Positions 25,423 to 62,506 of a stretch of 64,000 nt of DNA are shown here, piece after piece. The notes under the pieces were generated by a model. The model did not search any database. It saw only the letters and a program-made list of their open reading frames with translations, and was not told the origin of the DNA. Within the stretch, counting starts at the first letter, position 1. Each line of letters opens with the position of its first letter. Origin of the DNA: Deltaproteobacteria bacterium tcs-42 (GTDB taxonomy: Bacteria > Desulfobacterota > Desulfuromonadia > Desulfuromonadales > Geopsychrobacteraceae); contig LLYT01000001.1 of the NCBI GenBank assembly GCA_002049545.1, forward strand, positions 5,605-69,604. Direction: 5' to 3'. The position numbers were made by a program, and so were the translations under genes.

Positions 25423-25427
25423 ATATT

Positions 25428-25661: not shown

Positions 25662-25662
25662 T

Positions 25663-26304
25663 ATGATGTCCCCTTCAGTTCGCTACGACACATCCGGCTT
25701 GCCGGAAGACCAATATGAACCCGGTTCAGATAGATCTGTTCTGAAAAATCTGCGTGGAATTACCTCTTCGGAAGAGATGCAGATTGTTGAGACAGAGGAA
25801 TTGTGGCGAACACAAGAATATCTATTGGGAGAGATTGAACAAGATCAGAAATTCACTGTTAATGATATCTATGAAATGCATCGAATCTGGCTCGAAACGG
25901 TTTATTCGTGGGCCGGAAAAGATCGTCAGGTCAATATCAGCAAAGGCGGGTTCGATTTCGCCATGGCTCGGGTGATTCCGAACATGATGGCGGAGTTTGA
26001 GCGGAAACAGTTGGCGGTACATACCCCGTGCCAATGTACCGATATAAATGAAATCGCTCAGGCTCTGGCGCAAGTGCATGTAGAGCTGATGCTGATACAC
26101 CCCTTTCGTGAGGGGAACGGTAGACTCGGTCGTTTATTTGCCACACTGATGGCATTGCAGGCAGGTTTGCCGCTACTTGATTTCAGTGATTGGTCAGGAT
26201 TAAAGAGAGAAGAATACTTTGCTGCGGTTCGTGCAGGCATGGATATGAAATATGATCCGATGAGGCAACTATTTCTTGAGGTGATAGAAGGTTCAGGCAG
26301 ATAA
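25663..26304 (+). CDS. Fic-domain AMP-transferase (class I FicT-like toxin)
   Basis: Canonical HPFREGNGRLGR motif; YEPGS...VLKNLRGI N-terminus. Confidence 0.9.
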   Translation: MMSPSVRYDTSGLPEDQYEPGSDRSVLKNLRGITSSEEMQIVETEELWRTQEYLLGEIEQDQKFTVNDIYEMHRIWLETVYSWAGKDRQVNISKGGFDFAMARVIPNMMAEFERKQLAVHTPCQCTDINEIAQALAQVHVELMLIHPFREGNGRLGRLFATLMALQAGLPLLDFSDWSGLKREEYFAAVRAGMDMKYDPMRQLFLEVIEGSGR

Positions 26305-26317
26305 CGGAAGAGGCCGG

Positions 26318-26536
26318 TTAAGATTTCTTTGAGGTGTTGTAGTTCGTCCCGGAGGTAGATTCGTGGACGCAGTTTGTCGAGCTGCTGTTCTTGGATACGA
26401 ACTGTCCCGTAACAGCATCACGCTTGACGCTAATCCCTTCAATTGCGGAAGACGATTCTATGTTGCGAGTCATCGATTTTTCACGAATTGAGCGGTTTTG
26501 AAGATGTCGATTGGTTGTTAATAGTGACTTTTTCAT
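26318..26536 (-). CDS. Small putative Fic antitoxin (FicA-like)
   Basis: 72 aa with SSAIEG matching the (S/T)xxxE(G/N) inhibitory motif; ends 13 nt from the fic stop. Confidence 0.6.
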   Translation of the reverse strand: MKKSLLTTNRHLQNRSIREKSMTRNIESSSAIEGISVKRDAVTGQFVSKNSSSTNCVHESTSGTNYNTSKKS

Positions 26537-26600
26537 GTCGCTAATTATACAAGAAGCAACAATTTTTATCAGTAAAATAATAAACAGGACAGGAACTTAA

Positions 26601-28136: not shown

Positions 28137-28158
28137 AAAATGAGAAGGGTACATTTAA

Positions 28159-29061
28159 ATGCAATCCATAATTTCTATTGCGACGCCTGCAGCTCTTTAC
28201 CTACTAGGTGTTTTCCTCTTTACCTTTCCGCTTGTCTGGCTACAGAAACGCAAGCAGAAAGGTAAAAGATCACCTTTAAGTGGTCATTTGTTGCGTAGTC
28301 CTGGCACTTCATTGCAGAGCCGGATCGAAGAATTGAGTTTGGATATCATGGCATATATTGCTATTTTTCCTGCCTTCCCGCTGCTGATTTATTCGTTTTA
28401 TCTCCCATTGATTCATGCTCAAAAGACCACGACCTATAGTGTTTTGATCATCATTGGTATCGTGATTGTAGTGTTACTTTGGATTGGCATTAAGGTCTAT
28501 CGATTGATGACGGAAAGAAATAACTGTCGCTTGGGTCTCGATGCAGAAATGGCGGTAGGTCAAGAACTTAACCAGCTTATGTTTAATGGGTTTCGAGTTT
28601 ATCATGACTTTCCGGCGGAAAATTTCAACATTGATCATGTCGCGGTTGGTCCGACAGGCGTCTATGCCGTTGAGACGAAAGGGAGGACAAAGGCGATTAG
28701 AAAGGCCGGAAAGGTTGAGGCGACTGTCGTTTATGATGGAAAGACACTGCAATTTCCAAGTTGGTATGAAACCGAACCGTTACTGCAGGCACAACGTCAA
28801 GCCGACTGGCTCAGAAAATGGCTAACCAGTGCAGTTGGCGAGCCGGTGTATGTGCAAGCAGTTTTGGCTCTCCCAGGATGGTATGTTGTACGTAAAGCTG
28901 ATCGACCAATAAAACTGATCAGTGGTAAAGAAGCCTATTCCCTGGCAAAACCAAGCGGCATTACCCTTCTTGGTAACGACATGATCCAACGGATTTCCCA
29001 TCAGGTCGAACAGCGTTGTCGGGACGTTGAACCGGTTGCTTACCGAAAAGAAAAGAAATAA
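28159..29061 (+). CDS. Membrane-anchored NERD (nuclease-related) domain protein
   Basis: N-terminal TM helices, GLDAEMAV, YHD, NIDHVAVGPTGVYAVETK. Confidence 0.8.
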   Translation: MQSIISIATPAALYLLGVFLFTFPLVWLQKRKQKGKRSPLSGHLLRSPGTSLQSRIEELSLDIMAYIAIFPAFPLLIYSFYLPLIHAQKTTTYSVLIIIGIVIVVLLWIGIKVYRLMTERNNCRLGLDAEMAVGQELNQLMFNGFRVYHDFPAENFNIDHVAVGPTGVYAVETKGRTKAIRKAGKVEATVVYDGKTLQFPSWYETEPLLQAQRQADWLRKWLTSAVGEPVYVQAVLALPGWYVVRKADRPIKLISGKEAYSLAKPSGITLLGNDMIQRISHQVEQRCRDVEPVAYRKEKK

Positions 29062-45527: not shown

Positions 45528-46331
45528 ATGAAACTGGTAAAACTTGCACTTGCTTGTCTGTTGGCTTTTGGTGTTGTGATTCCAGGTGTTGCCACCGCTG
45601 ACACCCTGGATGATATTCAGGCTCGTGGCGTTCTGAAGGTTGGTATGGAGCCTGGCTACATGCCCTTCGAGATGACCAACCAAAAAGGGGAAATCATTGG
45701 TTTTGACGTCGATATGGCAAAAGGTATTGCCAAAGCTATGGGTGTCAAGCTGGAGCTGGTCAATACTGCCTGGGACGGTATCATCCCCGCCCTGCTCACC
45801 AAAAAGTTTGACATGATCATGAGTGGCATGACGGTCACCCAGGAGAGAAACCTGAAAATCAATTTTGCCGACCCCTACATTGTCATCGGACAAACGATTC
45901 TGATCGGGAAAGAGCACGCTGCTGATGTTAAATCCTACAAGGATCTTGACAAGAAAGGGTACAAGGTTGGTTCCAAGCTTGGCACCACCGGTGAAAAAGC
46001 AACCCATAGGATGATCCCGAACTGTTCTTATATATCATTTGATACCGAGCAAGAAGGAATTACTGACCTGGTAAACGGCAAGATCGATGCGTTTGTTTAT
46101 GACCTCCCCTACATGGAAATTGCATACGCCCAAAAAGGGAAAGGGAAACTTACCTATCTTAACAAGCCATTCACTTATGAGCCTCTGGCCTGGGCAATCC
46201 GTCGCGGCAACCATGACTTCCTCAACTGGCTGAACAACTACATGGCTCAGGTTAGAAGTGATGGGACCTACGACAAAATTTATGCGAAGTGGATCCAGAG
46301 TGACGCTTGGTTGAAACAGATCCAGAAGTAA
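45528..46331 (+). CDS. Polar amino acid ABC transporter substrate-binding protein
   Basis: Signal peptide, PFEMTNQKGEIIGFDVD, WDGIIPAL; GAGGAGG RBS. Confidence 0.93.
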   Translation: MKLVKLALACLLAFGVVIPGVATADTLDDIQARGVLKVGMEPGYMPFEMTNQKGEIIGFDVDMAKGIAKAMGVKLELVNTAWDGIIPALLTKKFDMIMSGMTVTQERNLKINFADPYIVIGQTILIGKEHAADVKSYKDLDKKGYKVGSKLGTTGEKATHRMIPNCSYISFDTEQEGITDLVNGKIDAFVYDLPYMEIAYAQKGKGKLTYLNKPFTYEPLAWAIRRGNHDFLNWLNNYMAQVRSDGTYDKIYAKWIQSDAWLKQIQK

Positions 46332-46344
46332 TTTGATCAAATAT

Positions 46345-46386
46345 ATGGAGGATGCAGTTTATTTATAATTGCATCCTCCATTTTTT
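46345..46386 (+). terminator. Intrinsic terminator
   Basis: ATGGAGGATGCA...TGCATCCTCCAT followed by a T run. Confidence 0.75.
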
Positions 46387-46475
46387 ATCAATCTTGATGG
46401 CGTCGCCATCCCATAAGTTTTTTTGCGAAAGCATCAATCTTTCATTTTAATTTAATTCTAGAAAGACCCAGTCAA

Positions 46476-47435
46476 GTGAATAAAAAAACCAATAACGGAC
46501 TTTGGTGGGCTCTCACAATATTAGTTTTAGCACTGATTGTTTTTGGTCTTTGGGTTGCGACCAAAAGAATCGACTATACCTGGCGCTGGAATCGAGTTCC
46601 ACAATACTTTGTCTATCTCGACAAAGATGTAAAATCGGCAACCTCTAATGGCACCGTGACCCAGCTCGAAAATAATGGTGACCAAACAACTGTAACGGTT
46701 CAGGGTGAGGATGGTGAAGAGAGCACCTATATTATTGATAGCAAAACTGCCAACCTGAAAGTTGACGAATACCTTTTAGAGGATGATACAGTTGGATCTA
46801 TTGGAGAGTGGAAAGCAGGCCCGCTAAGTGTTGGTCTCTGGGTCACTCTCTGGATATCGGCTATTGCCAGCGTCATTGGCCTGGTTATTGGTGTCATAAC
46901 CGGTTTGTGCCGGGTATCTCAAAATCTGACCCTGCGCCAACTCTCCATCACCTACATAGAAATAATTCGCGGCACACCGCTGCTGGTTCAGCTTTTTATC
47001 TTTTATTTTTTCCTGGGTACCGTTCTCGATATCGGGAGAATCCCTTCTGGAATTGGTGCACTGGCCGTTTTTGCCGGAGCTTATGTCGCTGAGATTATTC
47101 GTGCCGGAATTCAGTCAATCCCCAAAGGGCAGATGGAAGCATCGCGCTCACTGGGTATGAATGTCCCCCAGGCGATGACGTATATTATCCTGCCGCAGGC
47201 GTTTAAACGAACCCTGCCGCCACTGGCTGGCCAGTTTATCAGCCTGATTAAAGATTCATCGCTGGTTTCAGTCATTGCCATCACTGACCTGACTAAAAGT
47301 GGTCGTGAAGTTATCACTTCAACCTTTGCGGTCTTTGAAATCTGGTTTGTTGTGGCATTTCTCTATCTGATATTAACATTCAGCTTATCGCAAGTGGTTG
47401 CCTGGGTTGAGCGGAGGCTAGCAGTCAGTGATTAA
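46476..47435 (+). CDS. Polar amino acid ABC transporter permease
   Basis: [34 protein letters not shown]. Confidence 0.93.
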
Positions 47436-48162
47436 AACAGTTGGTTTAGAAAAAGTATTTGTTGTTCGTGATCAAGAAGTGCGTGCCGTCGATGGCATCT
47501 CCTCCCACATCAAGTCTGGCGAAGTTGTCGTTGTTATTGGCCCTTCTGGTTCAGGGAAATCGACATACCTGCGTTGTTTGAATGGTCTCGAAACCTTAAC
47601 CGGTGGCCATGTTCATATTGATGGAATCGATCTCGCTGATCGAAAAACCGACATGAATAAAGTGCGTCGTGAAGTGGGGATGGTGTTTCAACAATTCAAC
47701 TTGTTCCCCCACAAAACAGTTCTTGAAAATCTGGTTCTGGCACAAATGAAGGTCCGGAAACGGAAGCGCTCTGAGGCCGAAAAAACTGGTCGTGCCCTGC
47801 TCAAAAAAGTTGGTATTTCGGAAAAAGAAGCGAACTACCCAAGTCAACTCTCCGGTGGTCAACAACAACGTGTCGCTATTGCCCGCGCATTGGCGATGGA
47901 ACCGAAAGTGATGCTGTTTGACGAACCAACCAGTGCCCTCGATCCGGAAATGGTTGGTGAGGTCCTTGAAGTCATGAAACAGCTTGCCCGTGAAGGGATG
48001 ACTATGGTCGTTGTCACCCACGAGATGGGTTTCGCCCGCGAAGTTGCCGACCGTGTACTGTTTATGGATTACGGCAAGCTGGTCGAAGAAGGGACTCCTG
48101 AGCATTTCTTTACCGATCCGCAGGAAGAGCGGGCCAAGTTATTCCTCAGGCAGGTTTTGTAG
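47428..48162 (+). CDS. Polar amino acid ABC transporter ATP-binding protein
   Basis: [35 protein letters not shown]. Confidence 0.95.
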
Positions 48163-48182
48163 TTTTTGACAAGGAACGTTTC

Positions 48183-48208
48183 AGGGCGCCTTTCGGGCGC
48201 CCTTTTTT
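48183..48208 (+). terminator. Intrinsic terminator
   Basis: AGGGCGCC-TTTCG-GGCGCCCT followed by T run. Confidence 0.85.
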
Positions 48209-48218
48209 GTGGTAAACC

Positions 48219-48935
48219 ATGGATCAGCGCGACACATCAAACCCTTCCCTGCGGTCTGACATTCTACGTCAAGGAGCCGCCGCCGCCTGGCCAATCTGTC
48301 TTGGGTATTTCCCCATTGGTTTGGCTCTTGGTGTCTTAGCCCGACAAGCAGGCTTGCACTGGTGGGCGGTGGCACTGATGTCAATTATGGTCTTTGCCGG
48401 GAGTGCTCAATTTATCTGTGTTGCCATGCTCGCGGCAGGTGCATCGGTTCCATCAATTATTTTCACGACTCTGGTCGTAAACCTGCGCCACACCCTGATG
48501 AGTTCAGCCCTGGCGGTCTACCTGGCCGGCGTTAATCAAAAATTTCTGGCTGTTTTTTCTTACGGTATCACCGATGAAAGCTTTGCCGTCAACATGACCC
48601 AATTCAAAAAGGGGCATTGGGATCGATGGCGGGCACTGGTGGTTAACCATCTGGCAAATTCGGTCTGGATTCTGGCTACGGTGGCCGGAACGCTGGTCGG
48701 GCAATTTGTTCCTCAAGGCGCTTTTGGTATCGATTACGCACTGACCGGAATGTTTATCTGCTTATTGGTTTTTCAGCTACAGGGGCGGATATATCTTCTG
48801 ACCGGTCTTCTTGCCGCAGTGTTTTCGGTGGTATGGTATCTGTTGATTCCGGGAGATTCCTACATTGTCGGTGCTTCGGTTTGTGCGGCAACTCTCGGCT
48901 ATCTACTGAAACGACGCTATCGGAGGAAAAAATGA
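48219..48935 (+). CDS. azlC: AzlC family branched-chain amino acid exporter
   Basis: FAGSAQF, VNLRHTLMS, ITDESFAV. Confidence 0.9.
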   Translation: MDQRDTSNPSLRSDILRQGAAAAWPICLGYFPIGLALGVLARQAGLHWWAVALMSIMVFAGSAQFICVAMLAAGASVPSIIFTTLVVNLRHTLMSSALAVYLAGVNQKFLAVFSYGITDESFAVNMTQFKKGHWDRWRALVVNHLANSVWILATVAGTLVGQFVPQGAFGIDYALTGMFICLLVFQLQGRIYLLTGLLAAVFSVVWYLLIPGDSYIVGASVCAATLGYLLKRRYRRKK

Positions 48936-49255
48936 CTTTCTCCGATTATTTTTTTCTCTTCGCCGGGATGGGTCTGGTCACATATCTGCCACGCACCCTG
49001 CCGTTACTTTACCTTGCCCACAAACAACTTCCTCAATGGATGATTGACTGGCTCAGCTTGATTCCTGTTGCGGTATTGAGTGCTCTGTTGGCTCCCTCTT
49101 TATTTGTTGATGCCGAACACCGCAGTTTTTCACTGGGAAAGCCAGAACTCATCGTTGCAATTCCGACATTGATCTTTGCCTTGAAAACCCGTAGCCTCGG
49201 CGGCACCGTTCTGGTTGGTATGTTTTTGTACTGGTTGGCGGGAATTTTTATGTAG
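48932..49255 (+). CDS. azlD: AzlD family protein
   Basis: VTYLPRTLP, IPVAVLSALLAP; ATGA overlap with azlC. Confidence 0.88.
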   Translation: MTFSDYFFLFAGMGLVTYLPRTLPLLYLAHKQLPQWMIDWLSLIPVAVLSALLAPSLFVDAEHRSFSLGKPELIVAIPTLIFALKTRSLGGTVLVGMFLYWLAGIFM

Positions 49256-51705: not shown

Positions 51706-52980
51706 CTACAGAAGAACCCGCTCCAGGTGTTTAACCAGAAAATCAATCTCTTCATCGCTGATATTAAGTGGTGGGGAAATGCGGATTGTGTGACCATGAC
51801 TGTCATTGACAATCAATCCAAGATCGAGAAGCTGACGACAGAAATCCATAGCATTTCCTTTAACAACTTCGATCCCGATAAACAGCCCTTTCCCGCGCAC
51901 TTCTTTGACATGTGGAGATTTTTCGGCAATTTTTTCGATGGCTGCTTTCAGTTTTTTCCCCTGCAGGGCTGAACTTTCAACCAGTTTTTCTTCTTCTATG
52001 ACGGTCAGAGCAGCAATCCCGGCAATGCAGGCGAGTGGGTAGCCACCGAAAGTCGACCCATCAGAACCGACCTTGAACGCCATATCCATCAACTCACTGT
52101 TGGTCATGAAAATCGACAGTGGCACCAAACCACCCGATAAAGCCTTTCCAAGAACCAGACCATCAGGTACGACATTTTCATGCTCAAAGCAGAAACGTTT
52201 TCCGGTACGCCCCAGACCAACCTGAATTTCATCAAAAACCAGCAGCAGATCTTCTTGATCAGCAATATCCCTTAAACCTTGCAGAAATCCCTGCGGGGGA
52301 ACCAGCATACCGCCCTCCCCTTGCATCGGCTCAACCAGGATACCGCAGGTGTTTTTATTCACCAGTTTTTTAACATCTTCAAGATTGCCGAATTCTGCCG
52401 AAACAAATCCGGGTGTCAGCGGCCCGAACCCTTCCCGGTATTTTTTTGTCGAGGAGAAAGAAATAACGGTGATCATGCGACCGTGAAAATTATTGTCGAA
52501 GATGATAATTTCTTGTTTGCCATCTTCAATCCCTTTTTTCTTCCAGCCGTAATAACGCATCATCTTGATGGCCGTTTCAACCGATTCTACCCCTCCGTTC
52601 TTGGGCAACACCTTATTCCCTTTATTACCGAAACGGGGAGCAAGCTGCGGAGCAAAATTGGCGGCTTTTTCAAGGAAGACACCAAGGGGATCGGTATAGA
52701 CAACATTTGAGATAACTGATGCATAGTTACCAATCAATGCTTCAGTCATAGCATGAACTATTTTCGGATGATGATGTCCAGGATTTGCTGCCGAATAAGC
52801 CGCCAGACAATCAAGATACTGACGTCCGCTGGCATCGGTCAACCAACATCCTTTAGCCTGACGTACAACCAGATTCAGCCGGTCGTAATGGTGGGCACCA
52901 TAAGTTTCCTCAAAATTAACAATTTTATCGTCAGCTACCGTTGCGCAGGCTGACATTAAACCGATATTGGGATTATACAT
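51706..52980 (-). CDS. rocD: Ornithine aminotransferase-like class III omega-aminotransferase
   Basis: AYSAANPGHHHP, NFHGR, EPMQGEGG, DEIQVGLGRTG, LGKALSGG; AAGGAG RBS before ATG 52980. Confidence 0.85.
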   Translation of the reverse strand: MYNPNIGLMSACATVADDKIVNFEETYGAHHYDRLNLVVRQAKGCWLTDASGRQYLDCLAAYSAANPGHHHPKIVHAMTEALIGNYASVISNVVYTDPLGVFLEKAANFAPQLAPRFGNKGNKVLPKNGGVESVETAIKMMRYYGWKKKGIEDGKQEIIIFDNNFHGRMITVISFSSTKKYREGFGPLTPGFVSAEFGNLEDVKKLVNKNTCGILVEPMQGEGGMLVPPQGFLQGLRDIADQEDLLLVFDEIQVGLGRTGKRFCFEHENVVPDGLVLGKALSGGLVPLSIFMTNSELMDMAFKVGSDGSTFGGYPLACIAGIAALTVIEEEKLVESSALQGKKLKAAIEKIAEKSPHVKEVRGKGLFIGIEVVKGNAMDFCRQLLDLGLIVNDSHGHTIRISPPLNISDEEIDFLVKHLERVLL

Positions 52981-53138
52981 GGCGACTCCTTGATGAAAAA
53001 TCATACAAACAGTATGTGTTGCTACCTAGATAACAACATACCATAAAGAGAGTATTTGTCAATAATTTTGCTAACTATGCTATGCTTGGCTGGTGTCACA
53101 TTTGACGGCAAGTTGGCTGCTGTATTGAAGGAGAGTAA

Positions 53139-53927
53139 ATGGTGGAATCATACATAATGACTGAATTTGGTTTTTCACAGTATGAAACATCCTGCTATAT
53201 GGCGCTGGTAGCTCACCATCCATCAAATGGATCGCAGCTGAGCAAGCTTTCAGGAATTGCCCGATCCCGAATTTATGATGTACTGAACACCCTGAGTCGC
53301 AAAGGGCTGGTTTTTGAAATAGAACAGGGGAAGTATGTTCCGTTGCCACCCCAGGAACTGAAAAAACGGCTGAAAAGCCGATTCGAATCAAATCTTCACA
53401 GTTTTGCAGAAGAGCTCGAAGCAGCGACAACTGTGACAGAATACGAATATATTCTAACCCTGAGGGGATATGACGAAGTCATTCAAAAAGCTATTGAAAT
53501 TATTGATCATGCTGAAAAAGAACTCTATATCAGGCTATTTCCACCCTGCGGAAAAAAACTTGCCCCGCATATAGATAAAGCCGCCGCACGGGGGGTCGGA
53601 ATCCGCTATGTCTGCATGGGTTCCATGGTGCACAATTTTGAGATTCAGATCGAGCATCCCGATTCACAGGAGCTGATTCATAAAATTGGCGGAGAGTCGG
53701 TTGATATCATTGCTGATAAAGAAGAAGCGCTGATCGGGATGTTCGAACTGGGGAAAGAAGACCTTTCCCCGTTTATCTGGACCAAGAACAAATGGTTTGT
53801 GATCGGCAATCGTGACAGTTTGCGGCACGATTTTTACCACTATTTTCTCAATAAAACCTATGACTGCAACGAACAACTTACCGTTGAGGAAAAGAACATC
53901 TACGAATTTATCAAAGCTGATGAGTGA
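53139..53927 (+). CDS. TrmB family transcriptional regulator
   Basis: FGFSQYETSCY, SGIARSRIYDVLNTLSRKGLV wHTH plus effector domain. Confidence 0.85.
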   Translation: MVESYIMTEFGFSQYETSCYMALVAHHPSNGSQLSKLSGIARSRIYDVLNTLSRKGLVFEIEQGKYVPLPPQELKKRLKSRFESNLHSFAEELEAATTVTEYEYILTLRGYDEVIQKAIEIIDHAEKELYIRLFPPCGKKLAPHIDKAAARGVGIRYVCMGSMVHNFEIQIEHPDSQELIHKIGGESVDIIADKEEALIGMFELGKEDLSPFIWTKNKWFVIGNRDSLRHDFYHYFLNKTYDCNEQLTVEEKNIYEFIKADE

Positions 53928-54107: not shown

Positions 54108-55307
54108 CTACACCCGTTCAAGAACCAGAGAAACTCCCTGTCCGACCCCAACACACATAGTACACAAAGCCCGCTTGGCACCGCTGTGCAAAAGCTGATG
54201 AGCCGCCGTGGTCGCAAGCCGGGCACCACTCATTCCCAAAGGATGTCCCAGAGCAATAGCCCCACCAAGAGGATTGATCCGCAGGTCATCATCGGCAATA
54301 CCAAGCTCACGGGTACAGGCCAGAGATTGCGCTGCAAAAGCTTCATTCAATTCGATAATATCAAAATCATTAAACCCCAGACCAAGCCGTTTTAACAATT
54401 TTTGTGTCGCTGGAACCGGGCCGAGCCCCATGATACGCGGTGGCACACCGGCCGAAGCCATACCACATATCCTGGCTACAGGCTTGAGGTTATACCGCGT
54501 GGCAGCCTGCTCCGAAGCAATCAGCAATGCTGCCGCACCATCATTAACCCCAGATGCATTCCCCGCAGTAACCGTACCGTCAGGAAACAGAACTTTGAGT
54601 TGACTCAACTTTTCCAGTGAAGTTAAACGCGGATGTTCATCCTTATCAACAATCACAGCCTCACCTTTACGCTGCGGAACCCGGACCGACACAATCTCAT
54701 GCGCCAACCGTCCGTCAGCCTGGGCAGCAGCCGCCTTGCTCTGGCTCCAATGGGCAAATTGATCCTGATCTTCACGACTGATTTTGAATTCACGAGCGAG
54801 ATTCTCTGCCGTTTCGGGCATTGAATCGGTACCGTAGAGAGCTTTGAACTGCGGATTAATAAAGCGCCAGCCAATGGTCGTGTCATAAACCTCGGCGTTG
54901 CGGGAGAAAGCAGTTGTCGCCTTGCCGATAACAAAAGGGGCCCTGGACATGCTCTCTACACCACCGGCAATAATCAATTCAGCATCTCCGGCTTTGATTG
55001 CCTGAGCAGCACTACCAACAGCATTAAGACCAGAAGCACAGAGGCAATTGATGGTACTGGCAGGTACACTGACAGGTAATTCTGCCAGCAGTGAAGCCAT
55101 CCGAGCCACATTGCGATTATCTTCACCCGCCTGGTTAGCACAACCAAGAACCACATCATCAACCGCTTCCCAGTCGACATCAGGATTGCGTGCCATCAAT
55201 GCTTTGAGTGGGACGACAGCCAGATCGTCAGGACGCACAGAAGAAAGTGAACCGCCATAGCGTCCGACGGGAGTACGGATTGCATCACAAATAAATACTT
55301 CACTCAT
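54108..55307 (-). CDS. pcaF: 3-oxoadipyl-CoA thiolase-like (PcaF/PaaJ clade)
   Basis: GCANQAGEDNRNVARM, ESMSRAPFV, DTTIGWRF, NEAFA, GHPLGMSG, CVGVGQG. Confidence 0.85.
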   Translation of the reverse strand: MSEVFICDAIRTPVGRYGGSLSSVRPDDLAVVPLKALMARNPDVDWEAVDDVVLGCANQAGEDNRNVARMASLLAELPVSVPASTINCLCASGLNAVGSAAQAIKAGDAELIIAGGVESMSRAPFVIGKATTAFSRNAEVYDTTIGWRFINPQFKALYGTDSMPETAENLAREFKISREDQDQFAHWSQSKAAAAQADGRLAHEIVSVRVPQRKGEAVIVDKDEHPRLTSLEKLSQLKVLFPDGTVTAGNASGVNDGAAALLIASEQAATRYNLKPVARICGMASAGVPPRIMGLGPVPATQKLLKRLGLGFNDFDIIELNEAFAAQSLACTRELGIADDDLRINPLGGAIALGHPLGMSGARLATTAAHQLLHSGAKRALCTMCVGVGQGVSLVLERV

Positions 55308-55342
55308 AAATCAAGCTCCAATGGGCAGGTTTTCAACCAATG

Positions 55343-56671
55343 TTACAGCTTTGCCTTAATTTTACGGAAGCCACCAAGCATAACCTCAGTCAGGATATCA
55401 ATTTCATTATCAGTGATTGCCGTCGAGAGAACTCCGGAGCAGGTATTGATCATCATCAGGCCGTTATCAAACAGGTGATCGAGCATGATTTCAAGGTGAC
55501 GATTTTCAGCTTCGCTCATGAATGCTTCACGGTAATTCGCCGGGGCAGTTGCTTTCATATGGACCCGGAACATCGATCCGCCACCTGTGACGCAGGCGGG
55601 AACAGCGGCAATATTTATTGCTTCAGCGATACTGCTACGAGCTCGGTCTGCCAAACGGTTAAGTTTCTCCACCGCGGCTTGATCAAACAACTCCATCGAA
55701 ACCCGTCCTGCGGTCATGGTGATTGGGTTTGCAGAGAAAGTTCCGGAAAGGGGAAAAACTATATTATCAACCAGAGGATTCATCACCTCCATAATCTCTT
55801 TTCGACCAGCGATAGCTCCAACCGGGAACCCGCCACCGATCATCTTTCCCATGGCAGTCAAGTCTGGATGAATATCGTACCACTGTTGCGCACCACCATA
55901 ATTGGAACGAAATGAAATCACTTCGTCATACACCAGCAGGGTATTATTTCTACGAGTCCAATCGTAAAGAGCCTGGATAAAATCTGCAGTGGCAGGGACA
56001 AGTCCGACCCGGTGGGGCAGTAGATCAATCAATACACAGGAGAGCTCAGCAGCATGATGATCAAGAATTTCAATCGCCCTTTCTGGATCATTAAAAGGGA
56101 TGATAACGACATCATTCAGCGCAGAAGCTGGGGTCCCCCGGGAGACGGTAACACTTACGGGGTTTTTCGCATCACCCCAGTTTGACGGCGCTGCCGTCTG
56201 GCTGACTTCAGCATAATCGTAGAGCCCGTGGTAAGCCCCTTCCACCTTGGCAATTTTGGGTCGACCGGTATAAGCTCTGGCTGCCTTCAGGCAACTCATC
56301 ACCGCCTCGGTTCCGGAATTAACAAACCGAACCTTATCAAAGCCGCGATTACGACTGCACAGATGCTCGGCATAGAGAATCTCTGCTTCGGTTGCCAGGG
56401 TGAATGCTGTCCCCTTCTGCAATTGTTCTGTAACGGCTGCAATAACTTGTGGATGAGCGTGGCCATGAATCAAGGACGCCATATTGTTGGCAAAATCGAT
56501 CCGCTTGACTCCCTCAATATCGGTGACGTAGCAACCCTCGCCCCGTTCAGCGTACAGGGGATGTGGGCTACGTAGCACCGTATTGCGACTGACCCCGCCA
56601 GGCATAACCTGACAACCACGTTGATAGAGTTTTGCACTTCTGGAGGGTTCTGTTTTGATGCCATTTTCCAT
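55343..56671 (-). CDS. Class III PLP aminotransferase, GSA-aminomutase/beta-transaminase-like
   Basis: MPGGVSR, FVNSGTEA, YHG, DEVISFR, AMGKMIGGGFPVGA, SGTFSANP; divergent from true HemL. Confidence 0.8.
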   Translation of the reverse strand: MENGIKTEPSRSAKLYQRGCQVMPGGVSRNTVLRSPHPLYAERGEGCYVTDIEGVKRIDFANNMASLIHGHAHPQVIAAVTEQLQKGTAFTLATEAEILYAEHLCSRNRGFDKVRFVNSGTEAVMSCLKAARAYTGRPKIAKVEGAYHGLYDYAEVSQTAAPSNWGDAKNPVSVTVSRGTPASALNDVVIIPFNDPERAIEILDHHAAELSCVLIDLLPHRVGLVPATADFIQALYDWTRRNNTLLVYDEVISFRSNYGGAQQWYDIHPDLTAMGKMIGGGFPVGAIAGRKEIMEVMNPLVDNIVFPLSGTFSANPITMTAGRVSMELFDQAAVEKLNRLADRARSSIAEAINIAAVPACVTGGGSMFRVHMKATAPANYREAFMSEAENRHLEIMLDHLFDNGLMMINTCSGVLSTAITDNEIDILTEVMLGGFRKIKAKL

Positions 56672-56680
56672 ATGCGAAAC

Positions 56681-57337
56681 CTACCCTTTTGCAGGCAATA
56701 ATTTGCCAGCTGTTCTCTGCTGGACGTAATCAAAACTGACACCTGGAGCCAATTCCAAAACCTTGAAACCTGCCGGAGTCACGTCCAGTACCGCAAGGTC
56801 GGTGTAAATTCGATCAACAACATTTTTCCCGGTGAGTGGATAGGTGCACGATTCAACCAGCTTAGGACCTCCATCCGTGGTACAGTGCTGAGTGATAACA
56901 TAAATAGTTTTAACCCCGGCGACCAGATCCATGGCGCCACCCACTGCAGGAATGGCATCAGGTTCACCGGTTGACCAGTTAGCCAGATCCCCCTGTTCGG
57001 AAATCTGCATTGCCCCCAAAACACAAACATCGATGTGCTGGCCACGAATCATAGCGAAGCTGTCGGCATGGTGAAAGAATGCGGCGCCAGGAATTGTGGT
57101 CACTGCCTTCTTCCCCGCGTTGATCAACTCTGGATCTTCTCCCCCTGAAGCAGGAACAGGCCCCATTCCCAGCAGACCATTTTCGGTATGATAGATCACC
57201 TCACGCCCTTCCGGGACATGCTGGGCAACCTTCTCGGGGATACCAATACCCAGATTGACATACGAACCATCAGGAATATCCAAGGCAGCCCGTTTGGCCA
57301 TCTCATCCCTGTTCCAGCCGATAATATCTGCTGTCAT
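56681..57337 (-). CDS. pcaJ: 3-oxoacid CoA-transferase subunit B (PcaJ-like)
   Basis: VNLGIGIP, HTENG catalytic Glu, VGGAMDLV. Confidence 0.82.
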   Translation of the reverse strand: MTADIIGWNRDEMAKRAALDIPDGSYVNLGIGIPEKVAQHVPEGREVIYHTENGLLGMGPVPASGGEDPELINAGKKAVTTIPGAAFFHHADSFAMIRGQHIDVCVLGAMQISEQGDLANWSTGEPDAIPAVGGAMDLVAGVKTIYVITQHCTTDGGPKLVESCTYPLTGKNVVDRIYTDLAVLDVTPAGFKVLELAPGVSFDYVQQRTAGKLLPAKG

Positions 57338-58044
57338 GGATAAAATCTCCCTTCAGCAACCAGCTTTGATTCCTGCTCCGGGTTAGCGACAGTGACAATA
57401 CGGTCAACAAAAATTCCAGGGGTCACAACAATTTCGGGATCAATCTCACCAGCGGTAACCATCCTCTCGGCCTGAACAATCGTGGTCTCTGCCGCCATCG
57501 CCATGATCGGGGCAAAGTTACGTGCGGTTTTGTTGTAGATCAGGTTGCCATAGCGATCGGCCTGTTTAGATTTAATCAGGGCAAAATCGGCTTTCAAACC
57601 ATATTCCATAACGTAGTCACGACCAGCAAAATGACGTTGCTCTTTTCCCTCTGCCAGCGGGGTTCCAACAGAAGTCGCAGTGTAAAAAGCCGGAACACCA
57701 GCACCACCGGCACGAATCCGTTCAGCCAGGGTTCCCTGGGGTACCAGTTCCAGATCTATTTTGCCGCTGCGGTACAATTCGGGGAATACCTTGGAACCGA
57801 CGGTGCGTGGATAGGAGCAGATCATTTTGGCGACCCGGCCATTTTCAATCAAAGCTGCCAACCCGACGTGACCGCTGCCGGTATTATTATTCACCACGGT
57901 CAGGTTTTGAGCCCCTTGATCAATCAAGGCATGGATCAGCTCAATCGGACTTCCTGCCTCACCGAATCCACCAATCATCACGGTCGCGCCATCAAAGATA
58001 TCGGCAACCGCTTTCGCCGGTGAATCAACTTGTTTATCAATCAT
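57334..58044 (-). CDS. pcaI: 3-oxoacid CoA-transferase subunit A (PcaI-like)
   Basis: DGATVMIGGFG, PQGTLAERIRAGGAG, KTARNFAPIMA; start moved to ATG 58044. Confidence 0.82.
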   Translation of the reverse strand: MIDKQVDSPAKAVADIFDGATVMIGGFGEAGSPIELIHALIDQGAQNLTVVNNNTGSGHVGLAALIENGRVAKMICSYPRTVGSKVFPELYRSGKIDLELVPQGTLAERIRAGGAGVPAFYTATSVGTPLAEGKEQRHFAGRDYVMEYGLKADFALIKSKQADRYGNLIYNKTARNFAPIMAMAAETTIVQAERMVTAGEIDPEIVVTPGIFVDRIVTVANPEQESKLVAEGRFYP

Positions 58045-58118
58045 CTTGAAAAACCATCCGTTTATCCATATCAGGGGCGAGCCACCGTCCCCGTCCATTT
58101 TTTGATCCCGACATTATC

Positions 58119-58152
58119 CATCGATGGACAACCACGGGGGGGCTGCACCTAC
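58119..58152. repeat. Degenerate GTAG-type REP
   Basis: Minus strand GTAGGTGCAGCCCCCCCGTGGTTGTCC; decayed partner near 58073-58096. Confidence 0.35.
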
Positions 58153-58158
58153 AACAAA

Positions 58159-59760
58159 TCAGGCTAAACGTTTACGTAATGCTTCAGACAGGTTCTCTTC
58201 TATTTCTTTCAACTCATCCTCGAAAAAATAGTTTTCAGTGTCAAACGGAAGCAACAAGTCGATCTTGTTTTTTTCCTCATCGTATTTAGCGTGAAATACG
58301 CGATTCATCCACTCCATATTGCGTGCTTCAGTAAACTGCAGGGCAAAACATTTCTCACCACCAATAACCGAGGTGCCAAGAATTGCCAGTTTGCCTGCCG
58401 AAATAGTCATCGAAATATGTCTTGATGGACGGTTGATTGAGGCCAGAGAATTGTAAATTTTACTAAAAACCCGTTCGATATCGGCCATTGGCGCGGCGAA
58501 GTAAAGGTGTTCACCGGTCGGGCGAGCGGCATACATAGAATGGAATCCAATCCCCAGCATCGCCAGGATATTAGCCAGATCAATCCAGTTCTGTGCCGAT
58601 TTATTGACATCAACTTTGCCATTTTTATCGGTAAATAAGCTGATGTGGTTCATGATCGGGCTCTGACTGCGAACCATGACTCCATGCGCCTTCAGTCGCC
58701 TGATAGCGGCAATAGTGCGCGGATTCAGTAATTCGCGCGGGGTAGAAAAATGAGCCATCCACGCCATCTGGATACCATTCTCATAAAGGAGGTCGTAAAG
58801 TTCGAACATCTTCTCGAATTTTTTGGTCAGGATCATCTCTGGTTGAAACGTCAACGCACGAGAACCAAGCCTGATGGTACGGATATGAGACAGTTCCGGA
58901 TCCTCAATAATCGGGGTGATATACTGGGCAAACCGACTGGCTGGCATAAAGCCGCCATCACCACCGGTAATCAGGATATCGGTCACCCCTTTATGGAGCT
59001 TCAGATAGTTGTGCAGCTGAGCTATGTCTTTCTGCAGAAACATATCTTCATCTCCACGCACCTGGGCGTGGCGGAAACAATAGGTACAGAATGAAAAACA
59101 ATTCTGGGTCGTCGTATCAAACACCAGCTGACATTGGGGATATTTGTGCTGACTCCCCTCAAGAAACTCAACCTCCCCCCTATCGTTGTCAAACCAGGGC
59201 TTGTTCAGCTGCTGATTGCCATCGTGAGGATTGGTCTTTTCACTGTAATCGACAACAATACGAGCCCGCTCTTCTGCAGTTTCTGCCTCAACATAAGCCC
59301 TGGTTGCTTCGGGGTCGATCATCCCCGGCTGCGGCAACACCAGTTGATAAAGCGAATCAGTTTTGTAATTATCCCAGTTGATAATATTTAACGAATGGCT
59401 GGTAGCGAGAAACCGATAGACCTCGATATAAAATTCCCGTTCCTTAATTTTATCCAGCTTGACCCCATTTTCTTCAAGGATCTGACAGACTTTTCTGAAT
59501 CCATCAAGCCCGGCGTAATTACTGCCAGCTTTAAAGAGAAATGGTCTGGTTTCACGTAACCCGGAGTGCTGCGGATAATTCACCTCAAGCCGGTTCAAAA
59601 CCCCAGCCGGCAACAGCCGTTCCAACTTGACAATATTGCGGGCCTCTTCACTGAAGTGGTAACGCTCTATCAATGCATTAATATCATCCCCGTTAAAAGA
59701 AGGGTTCACACTGCCTGAAGTTGCCTGGCTTACAATCGAAAGGTTGCCTGGACTTACCAT
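58159..59760 (-). CDS. KamA-like radical SAM/PLP 2,3-aminomutase (non-canonical, 533 aa)
   Basis: HKYP...CFSFCTYCFRH (CxxxCxxC), ILITGGDG, IRLGSR, AHFSTPREL, SAGK candidate PLP Lys. Confidence 0.8.
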   Translation of the reverse strand: MVSPGNLSIVSQATSGSVNPSFNGDDINALIERYHFSEEARNIVKLERLLPAGVLNRLEVNYPQHSGLRETRPFLFKAGSNYAGLDGFRKVCQILEENGVKLDKIKEREFYIEVYRFLATSHSLNIINWDNYKTDSLYQLVLPQPGMIDPEATRAYVEAETAEERARIVVDYSEKTNPHDGNQQLNKPWFDNDRGEVEFLEGSQHKYPQCQLVFDTTTQNCFSFCTYCFRHAQVRGDEDMFLQKDIAQLHNYLKLHKGVTDILITGGDGGFMPASRFAQYITPIIEDPELSHIRTIRLGSRALTFQPEMILTKKFEKMFELYDLLYENGIQMAWMAHFSTPRELLNPRTIAAIRRLKAHGVMVRSQSPIMNHISLFTDKNGKVDVNKSAQNWIDLANILAMLGIGFHSMYAARPTGEHLYFAAPMADIERVFSKIYNSLASINRPSRHISMTISAGKLAILGTSVIGGEKCFALQFTEARNMEWMNRVFHAKYDEEKNKIDLLLPFDTENYFFEDELKEIEENLSEALRKRLA

Positions 59761-59955
59761 GAGAACTCCTTGTCTGCCTATATTGTGCTACTATTTTAAA
59801 AGTTTATTATGTAGCTGTGATGGTGTAAAACGATATAAACATATATTGATGACTTTGATGCATCAATATTGACAGATGCCCTCTGCTGCACCTGGCTTTC
59901 CGTCCAGATGCCTGGAATAACTGCAATACCCTTTACCGATTCTCAATGCCAGGCC

Positions 59956-61488
59956 TTAAATATCAAACTTGATCCCTTGGGCTAATGGCAATGTCCTGCC
60001 GTAATTAATGGTGTTAGTCTGACGCCGCATATACGCCTTCCAGGCATCAGAGCCCGATTCACGGCCACCACCAGTCTCTTTTTCACCACCAAAGGCTCCG
60101 CCGATTTCAGCCCCAGAAGTTCCAATATTGACGTTGGCAATACCACAATCTGAACCAGCTGCAGAGAGGAATTCTTCAGCTTCCAAGAGGTTCTGGGTAA
60201 ATATGGCAGATGACAATCCCTGCACAACGCAATTATGTAATTCAATCGCATTTTCAACGTCACCCCGATACTTGATCAGATAAAGAATTGGCGCAAAGGT
60301 CTCTTCCTGGACAATTTCGTAACTGTTTTCAGCCTCTACAACGGCTGGATTCACGTAACAGCCCGATTCATAACCTTCCCCCTCAAGAACTTCACCACCA
60401 CAAATAACCGAGCCCCCCTCGTCCTCTGCGCGTTCAAGAGCCCTTTTGAATTCACCAACGGCAATTGTATCAATCAGCGGGCCAACATGATTGTTTTCAT
60501 CCAACGGATCACCGATCTTCAGGCCACTGTAGGCTTTGACAATGGTTTCCTTGATCTTGTCGTAGATTGATTCATGAATAATAAGCCGGCGAGTTGAAGT
60601 ACAACGCTGACCGGCGGTGCCCACCGCGCCAAAAACGATGGCTGGCAGTGCAACTTTAAGATCTGCATTTGGAGTCAGAATAATTGCATTGTTGCCGCCA
60701 AGTTCGAGTATCGATTTACCAAACCGTTTAGCGATGATTTGCGCACCGCGCCGCCCCACCTCGGTCGAACCGGTGATCGATATCAAAGGCACCCGTTTGT
60801 CGTTGAGCAGTTTTTCTCCGACAGAAGACCCACGTCCGATAATCAGGCTGAATAATCCTTCGGGAAGGTCATTGGCCTTAATAACCTCTGCCAGAATATT
60901 TTGTACCGCGATGGCCGTCAGAGGCACCTTCGATGAGGGTTTCCACAAGTTTGTGTCGCCACAAACCGTGGCAATCATGGTGTTCCATGACCACACTGCA
61001 ACAGGAAAATTGAACGCGGTGATTGTGCCAACGATTCCAAGCGGATGGTATTGATCGTACATTCGATGTTGTTCACGTTCTGAAACCATCGTGGAACCGT
61101 AAAGCTGCCGAGACTGACCAACCGCGAAGTCACAGATATCAATCATCTCCTGAACCTCGCCCTTCCCTTCCTGTAGTGATTTGCCCATTTCGTAGGAAAC
61201 AAGAGCACCAAGAGCATCTTTATATCTGCGCAGTTGTAAACCAATCTGGCGAACAATTTCACCCCGTTTCGGTGCTGGGACTACTTTCCATTGCTTGAAC
61301 GCCTCAACTCCCCTGGCAACCAGCTTGTCGTAGTCTTCTTCCGAGGCAAGGTAAACACTGGCGATATACTTGCCATCAACGGGTGAAACAATCTTCAATT
61401 CCCCCTGATCGGTAGTGTCATTCCATTCAATACCGGTCGAAGCACCAAAATTCTTTTCCTTAATGCCGAGCTCTTGCATAAAATCCAT
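59956..61488 (-). CDS. Aldehyde dehydrogenase, ALDH7 / aminoadipate-semialdehyde (P6C) dehydrogenase-like
   Basis: [68 protein letters not shown]. Confidence 0.88.
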
Positions 61489-61660
61489 TCTATTTCTCCT
61501 TGATCAAAAATATGGATACGCCGATTTTCTAGTTTTTCAAAGGATAAGAAAAAACGAACTAAAGGTGAAATATTGTTTTCCTTTGAGGGATAAATGTATA
61601 AACTATAGCTCTTACCTCAATCAAAATTGTTTAACTAGCACTGAAGAGAGCGATATTGCG

Positions 61661-62506
61661 TTGGAACTTCGAGCCCTACGATATTTTGTTTCTGTCTATG
61701 AAGAATTGAGTTTGAGCCGTGCTGCAAAACGGTGCTTTGTAGCGCAACCATCAGTTTCAGCAGCGATTCATCAGCTGGAATCAGAACTCGATTGCCAGTT
61801 GTTTATTCGTCACTCCAAAGGAGTGAGTCCCACCCGGGATGGAAAAACCTTCTATCCCCATGCTATCAAAGTGATGGGCGATATCCAGGCGATGCAGCAG
61901 TTATTTCAAAATAAAGTTCCGTTACTGCCATTAAAAATCGGCCTCATGCCATTTTTATCCGGGGAGCGGATTGGACAAATTATCAAGGGATGGCTGGACA
62001 ATATTCAGGGATTGGACTTGACTGTTGTAGACTGGAACGAAGAGGCAGACGCAAGGATTGTTTCGAGCACAATGGTTTCGCAGAATGAAAGTTTCAACAA
62101 ACTCTGGTGTGATGAATATGTTCTCGCCATGCCGGCAGGACATCCACTGTCTCTGCAGAAAACTGTCAAGTTACGCCAACTGGATGGAGTCCCTTTTATC
62201 AGTCGAACTTTTTGTGATGCACTCGATTCGTGGAATTTTGCCATCCAGAAACAAAACATCCAGATCAATACGAAAGCGACCTTCAGTACTGAAGAATACG
62301 CACTGGATCTGGTTGCAGCAGGTCTCGGTATTTCGTTGGTTCCAAGTCATTCCACAACCCTGCGCACCGACATTATCACCCGGGAAATAAGTGATATACA
62401 CCTTGAACGTATCGTCGGGCTGGCATATAAAATTGATCATCCCCTGCCATCGCAACTATTAACCACGATCGACAAATTTAAAGATCGTATCGAAAGTGTC
62501 ACCTGA
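61661..62506 (+). CDS. LysR family transcriptional regulator, divergent from the ALDH gene
   Basis: (M)ELRALRYF...SLSRAAKRCFVAQPSVSAAIHQLE; TTG start after GAGAG. Confidence 0.92.
   Translation: MELRALRYFVSVYEELSLSRAAKRCFVAQPSVSAAIHQLESELDCQLFIRHSKGVSPTRDGKTFYPHAIKVMGDIQAMQQLFQNKVPLLPLKIGLMPFLSGERIGQIIKGWLDNIQGLDLTVVDWNEEADARIVSSTMVSQNESFNKLWCDEYVLAMPAGHPLSLQKTVKLRQLDGVPFISRTFCDALDSWNFAIQKQNIQINTKATFSTEEYALDLVAAGLGISLVPSHSTTLRTDIITREISDIHLERIVGLAYKIDHPLPSQLLTTIDKFKDRIESVT

Follow-up and report, generated by a model that had tools for sequence, protein, structure and literature searches.

A conserved gene cluster around a KamA-like radical-SAM protein, predicted to degrade 2-aminoadipate via 3-aminoadipate and 3-oxoadipate

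Lysine catabolism is patchily understood beyond a few model organisms, particularly in anaerobes. Lysine is converted to 2-aminoadipate in two textbook steps, by lysine 6-aminotransferase (LAT) or lysine 6-dehydrogenase (LysDH) and then by a dehydrogenase of the ALDH7 family, and 2-aminoadipate is known to be degraded either through 2-oxoadipate, glutaryl-CoA and crotonyl-CoA or, in Pseudomonas putida, by HglS to 2-hydroxyglutarate. Here we describe a cluster of seven genes at positions 54108-62506 of a stretch of 64,000 nucleotides (the window) from contig LLYT01000001.1 of Deltaproteobacteria bacterium tcs-42, a member of the Geopsychrobacteraceae. The cluster encodes a radical S-adenosylmethionine (radical-SAM) protein related to lysine 2,3-aminomutase (KamA) together with an ALDH7-type dehydrogenase, both subunits of a 3-oxoacid CoA-transferase, a class III aminotransferase, a thiolase and a LysR-type regulator, and its products may well break down 2-aminoadipate via 3-aminoadipate and 3-oxoadipate. 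The predicted route would share with the known ones the entry from lysine over aminoadipate semialdehyde or L-piperideine-6-carboxylate (P6C) to 2-aminoadipate, catalyzed by LAT, LysDH and ALDH7, but would need neither 2-oxoadipate dehydrogenase nor glutaryl-CoA dehydrogenase nor the O2-dependent HglS. It would lose no CO2, would be redox-neutral and would yield an anaplerotic C4 product.

Two other groups of described pathways stand close to the cluster. The beta-lysine fermentation (KamA, KamDE, Kdd, Kce, Kal) and the route of Pseudomonas B4 likewise rely on a radical-SAM 2,3-aminomutase that enables a cleavage of the beta-keto style. The predicted route differs from beta-lysine fermentation in lacking 5,6-aminomutase, Kdd, Kce and Kal, in replacing dehydrogenation or a lyase step by transamination, and in its substrate and products, which would be 2-aminoadipate, reached after oxidation at C6, and succinyl-CoA plus acetyl-CoA. 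The lower beta-ketoadipate pathway (PcaIJ and PcaF) and PaaJ of phenylacetate catabolism employ the same two enzyme families for the same predicted reactions. In contrast to the aromatic beta-ketoadipate and paa pathways, genes of an upper pathway are absent here, 3-oxoadipate would stem from an amino acid, and the carriers are largely anaerobes.

Each part of the cluster is of a known kind, be it the KamA-superfamily aminomutase, the beta-transaminase, PcaIJ/ScoAB, PcaF or ALDH7, whereas their combination and the chemistry predicted from it have no precedent known to us. A full-text literature search across some 8.3 million papers and preprints, with most subscription-journal papers outside its reach, found no description of a 3-aminoadipate or aminoadipate-aminomutase route, which agrees with the initial annotation of the cluster, made from the sequence alone, that knew of none. 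One match to "beta-aminoadipic" proved to be a typographical error in a reference list, and one review of synthetic pathways was unrelated. To our knowledge, there is neither an EC entry for an aminoadipate 2,3-aminomutase nor a lysine-degradation pathway through 3-aminoadipate in the standard compilations, and we know of interconversions of 2-aminoadipate, 3-aminoadipate and 3-oxoadipate only as postulates in retrosynthetic designs for adipate-family chemicals.

The gene cluster and its conserved five-gene core

Mapping of open reading frames (ORFs) together with Pfam and NCBIfam scans revealed seven genes at 54108-62506, all intact, with the LysR gene divergent from six co-oriented genes on the reverse strand, just as the initial annotation had described them. 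In the order of transcription these six comprise the gene of an ALDH7-type P6C/2-aminoadipate-semialdehyde dehydrogenase (59956-61488; NF050084 806.7 bits against a cutoff of 730), the predicted maker of 2-aminoadipate; the gene of the radical-SAM KamA homologue (58159-59760; 533 residues, motif CFSFCTYC, weak matches to KamA-family models), a predicted 2-aminoadipate 2,3-aminomutase; and those of the 3-oxoacid CoA-transferase subunits A (PcaI/ScoA family; 57334-58098; TIGR02429 349.6 against 128.5) and B (PcaJ/ScoB family; 56681-57337; TIGR02428 299.3 against 243.55). They are followed by the gene of a class III aminotransferase (55343-56671; Pfam Aminotran_3) with the fold of glutamate-1-semialdehyde (GSA) aminomutase, predicted to act as a beta-transaminase from 3-aminoadipate to 3-oxoadipate, and by that of a 3-oxoadipyl-CoA thiolase of the PcaF/PaaJ type (54108-55307; NF006551 702.1 against 605, TIGR02430 681.8 against 597), the predicted producer of succinyl-CoA and acetyl-CoA. 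The last four genes are tightly packed, as had been claimed for them: the CoA-transferase genes overlap by 4 bp, and gaps of 9 bp and 35 bp precede the aminotransferase and thiolase genes. The radical-SAM gene lies 60-114 bp before that of CoA-transferase A and 195 bp after the ALDH7 gene.

The true start of CoA-transferase A is probably M19 at 58044, which would give a protein of 236 residues like its homologues. The LysR gene (61661-62506, forward strand; Pfam HTH_1 and LysR_substrate; 281 residues) most likely starts with TTG at 61661, because the helix-turn-helix domain begins only at residue 85 of the listed ORF, which opens with GTG at 61415 and overlaps the ALDH7 gene. This start would leave a divergent intergenic region of 172 bp (61489-61660), the presumed promoter and operator region of the LysR and ALDH7 genes. 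A scan for consensus promoters and terminators gave no signal exceeding the shuffled expectation. Pfam or NCBIfam scans of almost all remaining ORFs of the window revealed no ring-cleavage, cycloisomerase, lactonase or PaaABCDE gene, so that the absence of aromatic ring-cleavage, lactonase and paa epoxidase genes reported earlier for the window was confirmed. The same scans returned no kamDE, kdd, kce or kal gene. Neither these four nor ring-cleavage, cycloisomerase, enol-lactonase or PaaABCDE genes occur among the recurrent neighbour families of the 84 loci described below.

Our synteny analysis covered 84 loci, whose ORFs were called and searched with the window proteins; 71 of them reach 4.3 kb or more beyond the radical-SAM gene on its downstream side and were informative for gene order. 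The genes of the radical-SAM protein, CoA-transferase A, CoA-transferase B, the aminotransferase and the thiolase were colinear and in the same orientation in 57 of the 71 informative loci, their products sharing 57-90% identity with the window proteins. Because this order recurs in so many loci from many phyla, the arrangement is far beyond chance, and the conserved functional unit is the five-gene core from the radical-SAM gene to the thiolase gene. The co-occurrence of these genes elsewhere, on which the pathway proposed in the initial annotation depended, is strong across phyla. The colinear loci span at least 11 phylum-level lineages, with Desulfuromonadales, Desulfocapsaceae, SAR324, Sumerlaeota, Krumholzibacteriia, Edwardsbacteria, Verrucomicrobiota, Bacteroidales, Lentimicrobiaceae, Tepidisphaeraceae (Planctomycetota), Acidobacteria, Betaproteobacteria and many Gammaproteobacteria, including Shewanella, Photobacterium, Pseudoalteromonas, Motiliproteus and Gallaecimonas. 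The carriers are mostly anaerobes or facultative anaerobes, which is consistent with an oxygen-sensitive radical-SAM enzyme.

Departures from this order were of two kinds. The adjacent thiolase gene alone was missing in 5 of the 71 loci. In nine others, from Colwellia and Litorilituus (including L063 and L074; locus numbers are those of our synteny set), the radical-SAM gene lies about 7 kb from a block of thiolase, aminotransferase and CoA-transferase genes. In these Colwelliaceae the radical-SAM gene and its LysR gene stand on the opposite strand from the block, and the gap between them holds AraC, MFS and other genes; as judged from the gene maps, the operon is split within this family. A divergent LysR gene precedes the operon in most loci and falls into two subtypes, represented in 31 and 27 loci. 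Orthologues of the window's LysR protein (58-84% identity) are encoded divergently from ALDH7 in L002, L006, L011, L016, L018 and L045.

The radical-SAM family itself is widely distributed. Relatives are encoded in 439 species genomes of a one-genome-per-species collection, and 1332 matches were found in a database clustered at 90% identity. Members are at least 61% identical across phyla, and the nearest relatives of the window protein (81-88% identity) belong to Desulfuromusa, Geopsychrobacter and other Desulfuromonadales metagenome-assembled genomes (MAGs). Because the whole family forms a single cluster at 50% clustering and its next relatives are only 25-42% identical, it is, by sequence comparison, a sharply delimited, strongly conserved orthologue group. 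In the source records its members are labelled either "hypothetical protein" or "L-lysine 2,3-aminomutase".

Because ALDH7 genes have been recruited to the operon in five unrelated lineages, together with LAT in one and with LysDH-like genes in two, 2-aminoadipate is the predicted feed of the core operon, and this repeated recruitment is the strongest evidence for it. ALDH7 orthologues adjoin the radical-SAM operon in 11 of 83 loci. In the window and in three further Desulfuromonadales loci (L012, L016, L018) the ALDH7 gene lies directly upstream of the radical-SAM gene under the divergent LysR gene. In Geopsychrobacter electrodiphilus and its relatives (L002, L011) a gene of the saccharopine-dehydrogenase fold stands between the two; the best PDB match of its product is 3ABI, which we take to be the L-lysine 6-dehydrogenase of P. 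horikoshii, and the surroundings hold three further genes of this fold, an amino-acid permease and an L-2-hydroxyglutarate oxidase. Transcribed divergently from the operon in a Verrucomicrobiae MAG (L066) are the genes of a genuine lysine 6-transaminase (TIGR03251, 564 against 520.8) and of a P6C dehydrogenase (792 against 730). In a Motiliproteus locus (L045) the genes flanking the operon include a LysR-ALDH7 pair (796 against 730) and one that is LysDH-like, and a TRAP transporter is encoded there too. In a Rhodocyclaceae MAG (L064), whose operon has no adjacent thiolase gene, ALDH7 follows right after the aminotransferase gene, inside the operon. A SAR324 locus (L043, 2-2922) has ALDH7 beside a PRK06148-type aminotransferase, whose family is related to 5-phosphohydroxylysine phospho-lyases and which would be another possible source of aminoadipate semialdehyde.

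A window search for LysDH, saccharopine dehydrogenase, LAT, LhgO and the second LysR type gave as its sole result a weak LAT-like match to an OAT-like class III aminotransferase gene (51706-53004, reverse strand; TIGR01885 375.4 against a cutoff of 378.4), which is paired with the gene of a TrmB-like regulator (53139-53927, forward strand). Both are possible accessories of the cluster. The OAT-like transaminase might form aminoadipate semialdehyde from lysine, but it shares no more than 28.5% identity with a genuine LAT. The pair also lies directly beside the thiolase gene in two Desulfuromusa MAGs (L006, L007), and in L005 the TrmB gene stands at the contig end. Transport genes were observed as well: a polar amino-acid ABC transporter (a binding protein of the Lys/Arg/Orn type, permease and ATPase) and an AzlC-like gene occupy 45528-49255 of the window, 5-9 kb from the cluster, and a similar ABC transporter lies between ALDH7 and the radical-SAM operon in the close relative L006. 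The dapF gene beside the operon of L006 raised meso-diaminopimelate as a candidate substrate, which was rejected, dapF being a housekeeping neighbour on the opposite strand in a single locus.

The radical-SAM protein and its partner enzymes

The radical-SAM protein is, on sequence and profile evidence, a true but remote full-length homologue of KamA, a remote relative or new clade outside the curated subfamilies. Its score with the KamA-family model TIGR00238 was 62 bits against a cutoff of 199.2, and it fell far under the cutoffs of the lysine, arginine, glutamate and EpmB equivalog models; among the curated models, those of the lysine and arginine aminomutases were best and that of glutamate 2,3-aminomutase was lower (51.7 bits). 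Lysine 2,3-aminomutase 2A5H was the sole PDB sequence match (E 3.9e-9, and 4.3e-10 with the family profile). It was also the sole match with E below 1e-3 in a Foldseek search with the AlphaFold2 model (E 7e-9 over 430 columns, target-normalised TM 0.54). Alignment of the family with six canonical KamA-family proteins from annotated records (Fusobacterium KamA, Bacillus KamA, Ilyobacter AblA, Xenorhabdus BlsG, E. coli EpmB and a Deinococcus homologue) by hhalign gave a probability of 99.5% and E 3.5e-22, and the match, residues 121-524 of the query, covers the whole length of KamA. About 120 N-terminal residues precede the aligned part; the AlphaFold2 model places a confident helical domain at residues of about 21-170 (predicted local distance difference test, pLDDT, 74-93), a domain that thus extends past the beginning of the alignment with KamA.

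The catalytic residues of KamA can be traced in the protein. The cluster motif CX3CX2C (C221-F-S-F-C225-T-Y-C228) aligns with CSMYCRHC of KamA, and T265-G-G-D268 with its SGGD motif for S-adenosylmethionine (SAM). R230, in CFRH, aligns with Arg134 of C. subterminale KamA, which binds the alpha-carboxylate of the substrate, and K457, in ISAGK, aligns by both hhalign and MAFFT with Lys337 (PGGGGK), the lysine that binds pyridoxal 5'-phosphate (PLP). C221, C225, C228, the GGD motif, R230 and K457 are invariant in 28 family members, and the KamA catalytic residues are also kept in a 31-member alignment of distant paralogues. Because the cluster, SAM, alpha-carboxylate and PLP-lysine residues are invariant, a PLP- and SAM-dependent amino shift is supported as the likely mechanism. 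The label "KamA-like" of the initial annotation is thereby borne out for a full-length, if remote, homologue.

KamA (2A5H), EpmB, glutamate 2,3-aminomutase and the arginine 2,3-aminomutase BlsG have in common with the radical-SAM protein the fold, the CX3CX2C motif for the [4Fe-4S] cluster, GGD, the arginine for the alpha-carboxylate and the PLP lysine, and the same way of working would be expected, with a 5'-deoxyadenosyl radical derived from SAM and a 1,2-amino shift on the PLP aldimine. The protein differs from KamA in its additional N-terminal region, in forming a separate orthologue group within a wider clade and in lacking the pair Asp293/Asp330. These two residues, whose numbering and roles we take from the work of Frey and Ringe, bind the epsilon-ammonium group of lysine; their positions were checked on the Fusobacterium sequence (YQCD293LS and VVD330APGGGGK). 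Asp293 aligns with A412 by hhalign or with R413 by MAFFT with intermediates, and Asp330 aligns with S450 or falls in a gap. No family member has Asp at either position in the hhalign or MAFFT alignments. Since the pair is not conserved, the alignments argue against lysine as the substrate of the radical-SAM protein.

More distant paralogues (25-42% identity; L091, 223-1629; L092, plasmid pDK3 of Rhodococcus sp. DK17, 6857-8185; L093) keep all catalytic residues. A profile search aimed at this distant clade largely retrieved the main family once more, with just three distant members besides. The genes around the paralogues include ATP-grasp, AMP-binding, PCP, N-hydroxylase, tRNA-ligase-like, Lant_dehydr_N and MbtH genes, resembling secondary-metabolite clusters, and the wider KamA-like clade probably makes beta-amino acids for natural products. 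As a clue to the substrate of the main family the contexts of the three distant members and two plasmid contexts were uninformative, the neighbourhoods being unrelated.

The aminotransferase can be separated from GSA aminomutase (HemL). HemL provided its best NCBIfam model, TIGR00713, with 329.4 bits against a cutoff of 527.3, and it stayed under every equivalog cutoff. Among PDB entries it matched 6K8H with 374 bits and ForI (6SSD) with 348, being about half identical to both along the full length, while any GSA aminomutase reached at most 226 bits and the Mesorhizobium beta-transaminase (2YKU) 194; the region of the PLP lysine (GK-IGGG) is present. A HemL identity was ruled out by the score under the TIGR00713 cutoff and the higher scores with 6K8H and ForI. 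6K8H is an omega-transaminase of Sphaerobacter thermophilus used on beta- and gamma-amino acids (PMC10589169), and ForI is a transaminase whose heterocyclic substrate is unconfirmed (PMC6927412). The enzyme, described as GSA-like in the initial annotation and assigned there to the beta-transaminases, indeed groups with transaminases of beta- and gamma-amino acids. The class III transaminases 6K8H, 2YKU and 6SSD have been studied on aromatic or aliphatic beta- and gamma-amino acids or a heterocycle, and none is tied to 3-aminoadipate or to such an operon.

CoA-transferase B carries the catalytic glutamate in the motif T-E52-N-G, and the best PDB match of CoA-transferase A is 3CDK, the succinyl-CoA:3-ketoacid CoA-transferase A of B. 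subtilis (ScoA). All plasmid matches to the CoA-transferase are labelled generically "3-oxoacid CoA-transferase". The thiolase, with its Thiolase_N and Thiolase_C domains, exceeds the curated cutoffs of both 3-oxoadipyl-CoA thiolase equivalogs, in line with its earlier description as PcaF-like.

The predicted route and competing explanations

The analysis shows which genes are present, to which families their products belong, which catalytic residues are conserved and how the gene order is kept; from these, the substrate, every reaction and the regulation of the route are predicted. In the first step, ALDH7 would oxidise 2-aminoadipate semialdehyde/P6C to L-2-aminoadipate. The radical-SAM, PLP-dependent KamA-like enzyme would then shift the amino group from C2 to C3, giving 3-aminoadipate, which the class III aminotransferase of the beta-transaminase type would convert to 3-oxoadipate. 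The CoA-transferase of the PcaIJ/ScoAB type would form 3-oxoadipyl-CoA, probably with succinyl-CoA as the CoA donor, and the PcaF-type thiolase would split it into succinyl-CoA and acetyl-CoA. Succinyl-CoA spent by the transferase would be regenerated by the thiolase, and the net reaction would turn 2-aminoadipate, an amino acceptor and CoA into succinate, acetyl-CoA and an amino acid. In this way 2-aminoadipate, an intermediate that the breakdown of lysine shares with that of pipecolate, would enter central metabolism without oxidation or decarboxylation. The divergent LysR-type regulator presumably induces the genes, and lineage-specific front ends (lysine 6-transaminase, LysDH-like enzymes and here possibly the OAT-like transaminase) would lead to aminoadipate semialdehyde.

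As a general scheme, the combination of an aminomutase with a beta-transaminase, a CoA-transferase and a thiolase appears likely, and its use on 2-aminoadipate somewhat less so. The initial annotation had proposed the same main pathway, which draws support from the synteny, the KamA residues, the grouping of the transaminase, the thiolase scores and the recruitment of ALDH7, LAT and LysDH-like genes; its carbon count (C6 = C4 + C2) stands, and the balance and cofactor logic close. The alternative order that it had offered, with lysine first converted to beta-lysine, is disfavoured by the lack of the Asp pair.

Several observations weigh against the 2-aminoadipate route. The radical-SAM protein is only about 17-21% identical to KamA, under the NCBIfam cutoff of the KamA family. 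Its AlphaFold2 model is of moderate quality (pLDDT 66.6), with values below 50 at residues 195-244, 412-422 and 447-459, and because confidence is low at the cluster loop and at the loops of R413 and K457, a site for the distal carboxylate is not definable. R413 as a carboxylate-specificity residue was set aside, being kept throughout the wider paralogous clade. The CoA-transferase models of NCBIfam are joint models for the PcaIJ (3-oxoadipate) and ScoAB (acetoacetate) transferases and give no separation of the two. The window encodes no clear enzyme from lysine to aminoadipate semialdehyde. In most loci, among them those of Shewanella, Bacteroidales and Sumerlaeota, the core stands alone with its regulator, and about 72 of the 83 loci have no ALDH7 nearby, most of them offering no direct hint at the substrate.

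The scarcity of ALDH7 neighbours also speaks for an alternative that we regard as unlikely, in which the same module logic serves another substrate, for instance glutamate, which would pass through beta-glutamate and 3-oxoglutarate to malonyl-CoA and acetyl-CoA, or some other acidic or neutral amino acid, for instance 2-aminopimelate or leucine/beta-leucine. ALDH7 would then adjoin the operon only now and then, with a function that is unrelated to it or lies merely upstream. In the radical-SAM protein, residues specific for a C6-dicarboxylate are not identifiable, and glutamate 2,3-aminomutase likewise replaces both Asp residues of KamA. Four Motiliproteus loci (L031, L041, L044, L051) have a BCCT transporter and a 4HBT thioesterase gene before the operon, a class I/II aminotransferase gene after it and a PreA-like DHO_dh/Fer4 gene nearby; this context gives a hint of another imported substrate, whether alternative or additional, and is not accounted for by the 2-aminoadipate route. 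However, the thiolase lies above the curated 3-oxoadipyl-CoA thiolase equivalog cutoff, and ALDH7, LAT or LysDH genes were recruited beside or into the operon in the five unrelated lineages named above. For glutamate in particular, the score with its aminomutase model is under those with the lysine and arginine models, and no gene handling malonyl-CoA is conserved in the operon.

Substrate and products could be as in the 2-aminoadipate route and the order of steps another, with the CoA-transferase acting first on 3-aminoadipate (or 2-aminoadipate) and the aminotransferase then on the CoA ester, resembling Kat, the 3-aminobutyryl-CoA transaminase in the alternative pathway of lysine fermentation. 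No free beta-keto acid would arise in this order, which also fits the position of the CoA-transferase genes before that of the aminotransferase; acyl-CoA beta-transaminases, as Perret et al. are said to have reported in 2011, exist within class III. We consider it improbable, given that the transferase belongs to the 3-oxoacid CoA-transferase family (with 3CDK as its PDB match), that the closest solved relative of the aminotransferase works on free beta- and gamma-amino acids, and that 3-oxoadipate is stable and well known as a free intermediate.

The source annotations "L-lysine 2,3-aminomutase", and the curated lysine and arginine models as the best ones, would instead fit a lysine 2,3-aminomutase whose product beta-lysine would undergo transamination at C3 to 3-oxo-6-aminohexanoate and then, after activation, cleavage into 4-aminobutyryl-CoA and acetyl-CoA, a variant of the beta-lysine routes of Pseudomonas B4 and of lysine fermenters. 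There is precedent for a derivative of beta-lysine being beta-transaminated and then cleaved thiolytically. Nevertheless, this explanation is quite improbable: the replacements of Asp293 (A412/R413) and Asp330 (S450/gap) are invariant, ALDH7, LAT and LysDH, being enzymes that work at C6 of lysine, would serve no purpose here, the thiolase belongs to the PcaF type, which forms succinyl-CoA, and kamDE, kdd, kce and kal are absent from the window scans and the recurrent neighbours. A radical-SAM protein with other radical chemistry, suggested by the remoteness of its similarity to KamA, or a biosynthetic module running from succinyl-CoA and acetyl-CoA over 3-oxoadipate and 3-aminoadipate to 2-aminoadipate for the supply of this or of a beta-amino acid, suggested by the chemical reversibility of all proposed steps and by the paralogues in secondary-metabolite-like clusters that presumably supply a building block, is very improbable in view of the invariant KamA hallmarks including the PLP lysine, of the LAT, oxidative ALDH7, amino-acid transporter and LysR activator genes that accompany the operon, and of the absence of conserved consumer genes nearby.

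Returning to the breakdown of 2-aminoadipate via 3-aminoadipate, we lean, if only slightly, towards a widespread, oxygen-independent, redox-neutral route that conserves all carbon, with the radical-SAM protein as the founding 2-aminoadipate 2,3-aminomutase. If true, the lower beta-ketoadipate pathway would have an entry that is not aromatic, and a function would be given to a family that now goes by the name hypothetical, or wrongly by that of lysine 2,3-aminomutase, in no fewer than 439 species genomes. A widespread annotation error would thereby be corrected, and the radical-SAM aminomutases, of which few are characterised, would gain a further class of substrates. It would explain the use of lysine and aminoadipate, without oxidative decarboxylations or HglS, by anaerobes and facultative anaerobes of sediments, guts and the deep sea, such as Desulfuromonadales, Bacteroidales, Sumerlaeota, Shewanella, Colwellia and Photobacterium. 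Natural enzymes that interconvert 2-aminoadipate, 3-aminoadipate and 3-oxoadipate would also be supplied.

Other features of the window

About 50 kb from the cluster, at 280-4063, two genes resembling phenylacetate-CoA ligase (AMP-binding and AMP-binding_C_2 domains) lie around an ACT-domain gene and adjoin a subunit gene of the gamma type of pyruvate/indolepyruvate:ferredoxin oxidoreductase. Genes are typically grouped in this way for the anaerobic metabolism of arylacetates or aromatic amino acids, and paa epoxidase genes are absent there. An ORF at 15413-16450 encodes a Tle1-like phospholipase catalytic domain of the type VI secretion system (279 bits), with no other genes of this secretion system seen nearby. 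A type I restriction-modification system occupies 18520-29061, with hsdR at 18520-21414, hsdS at 21411-22832 and hsdM at 26601-28136. Genes of the DUF3800, RhuM/Fic and Fic families break the system up, a NERD-domain gene comes after it, and the whole resembles a small defence island.

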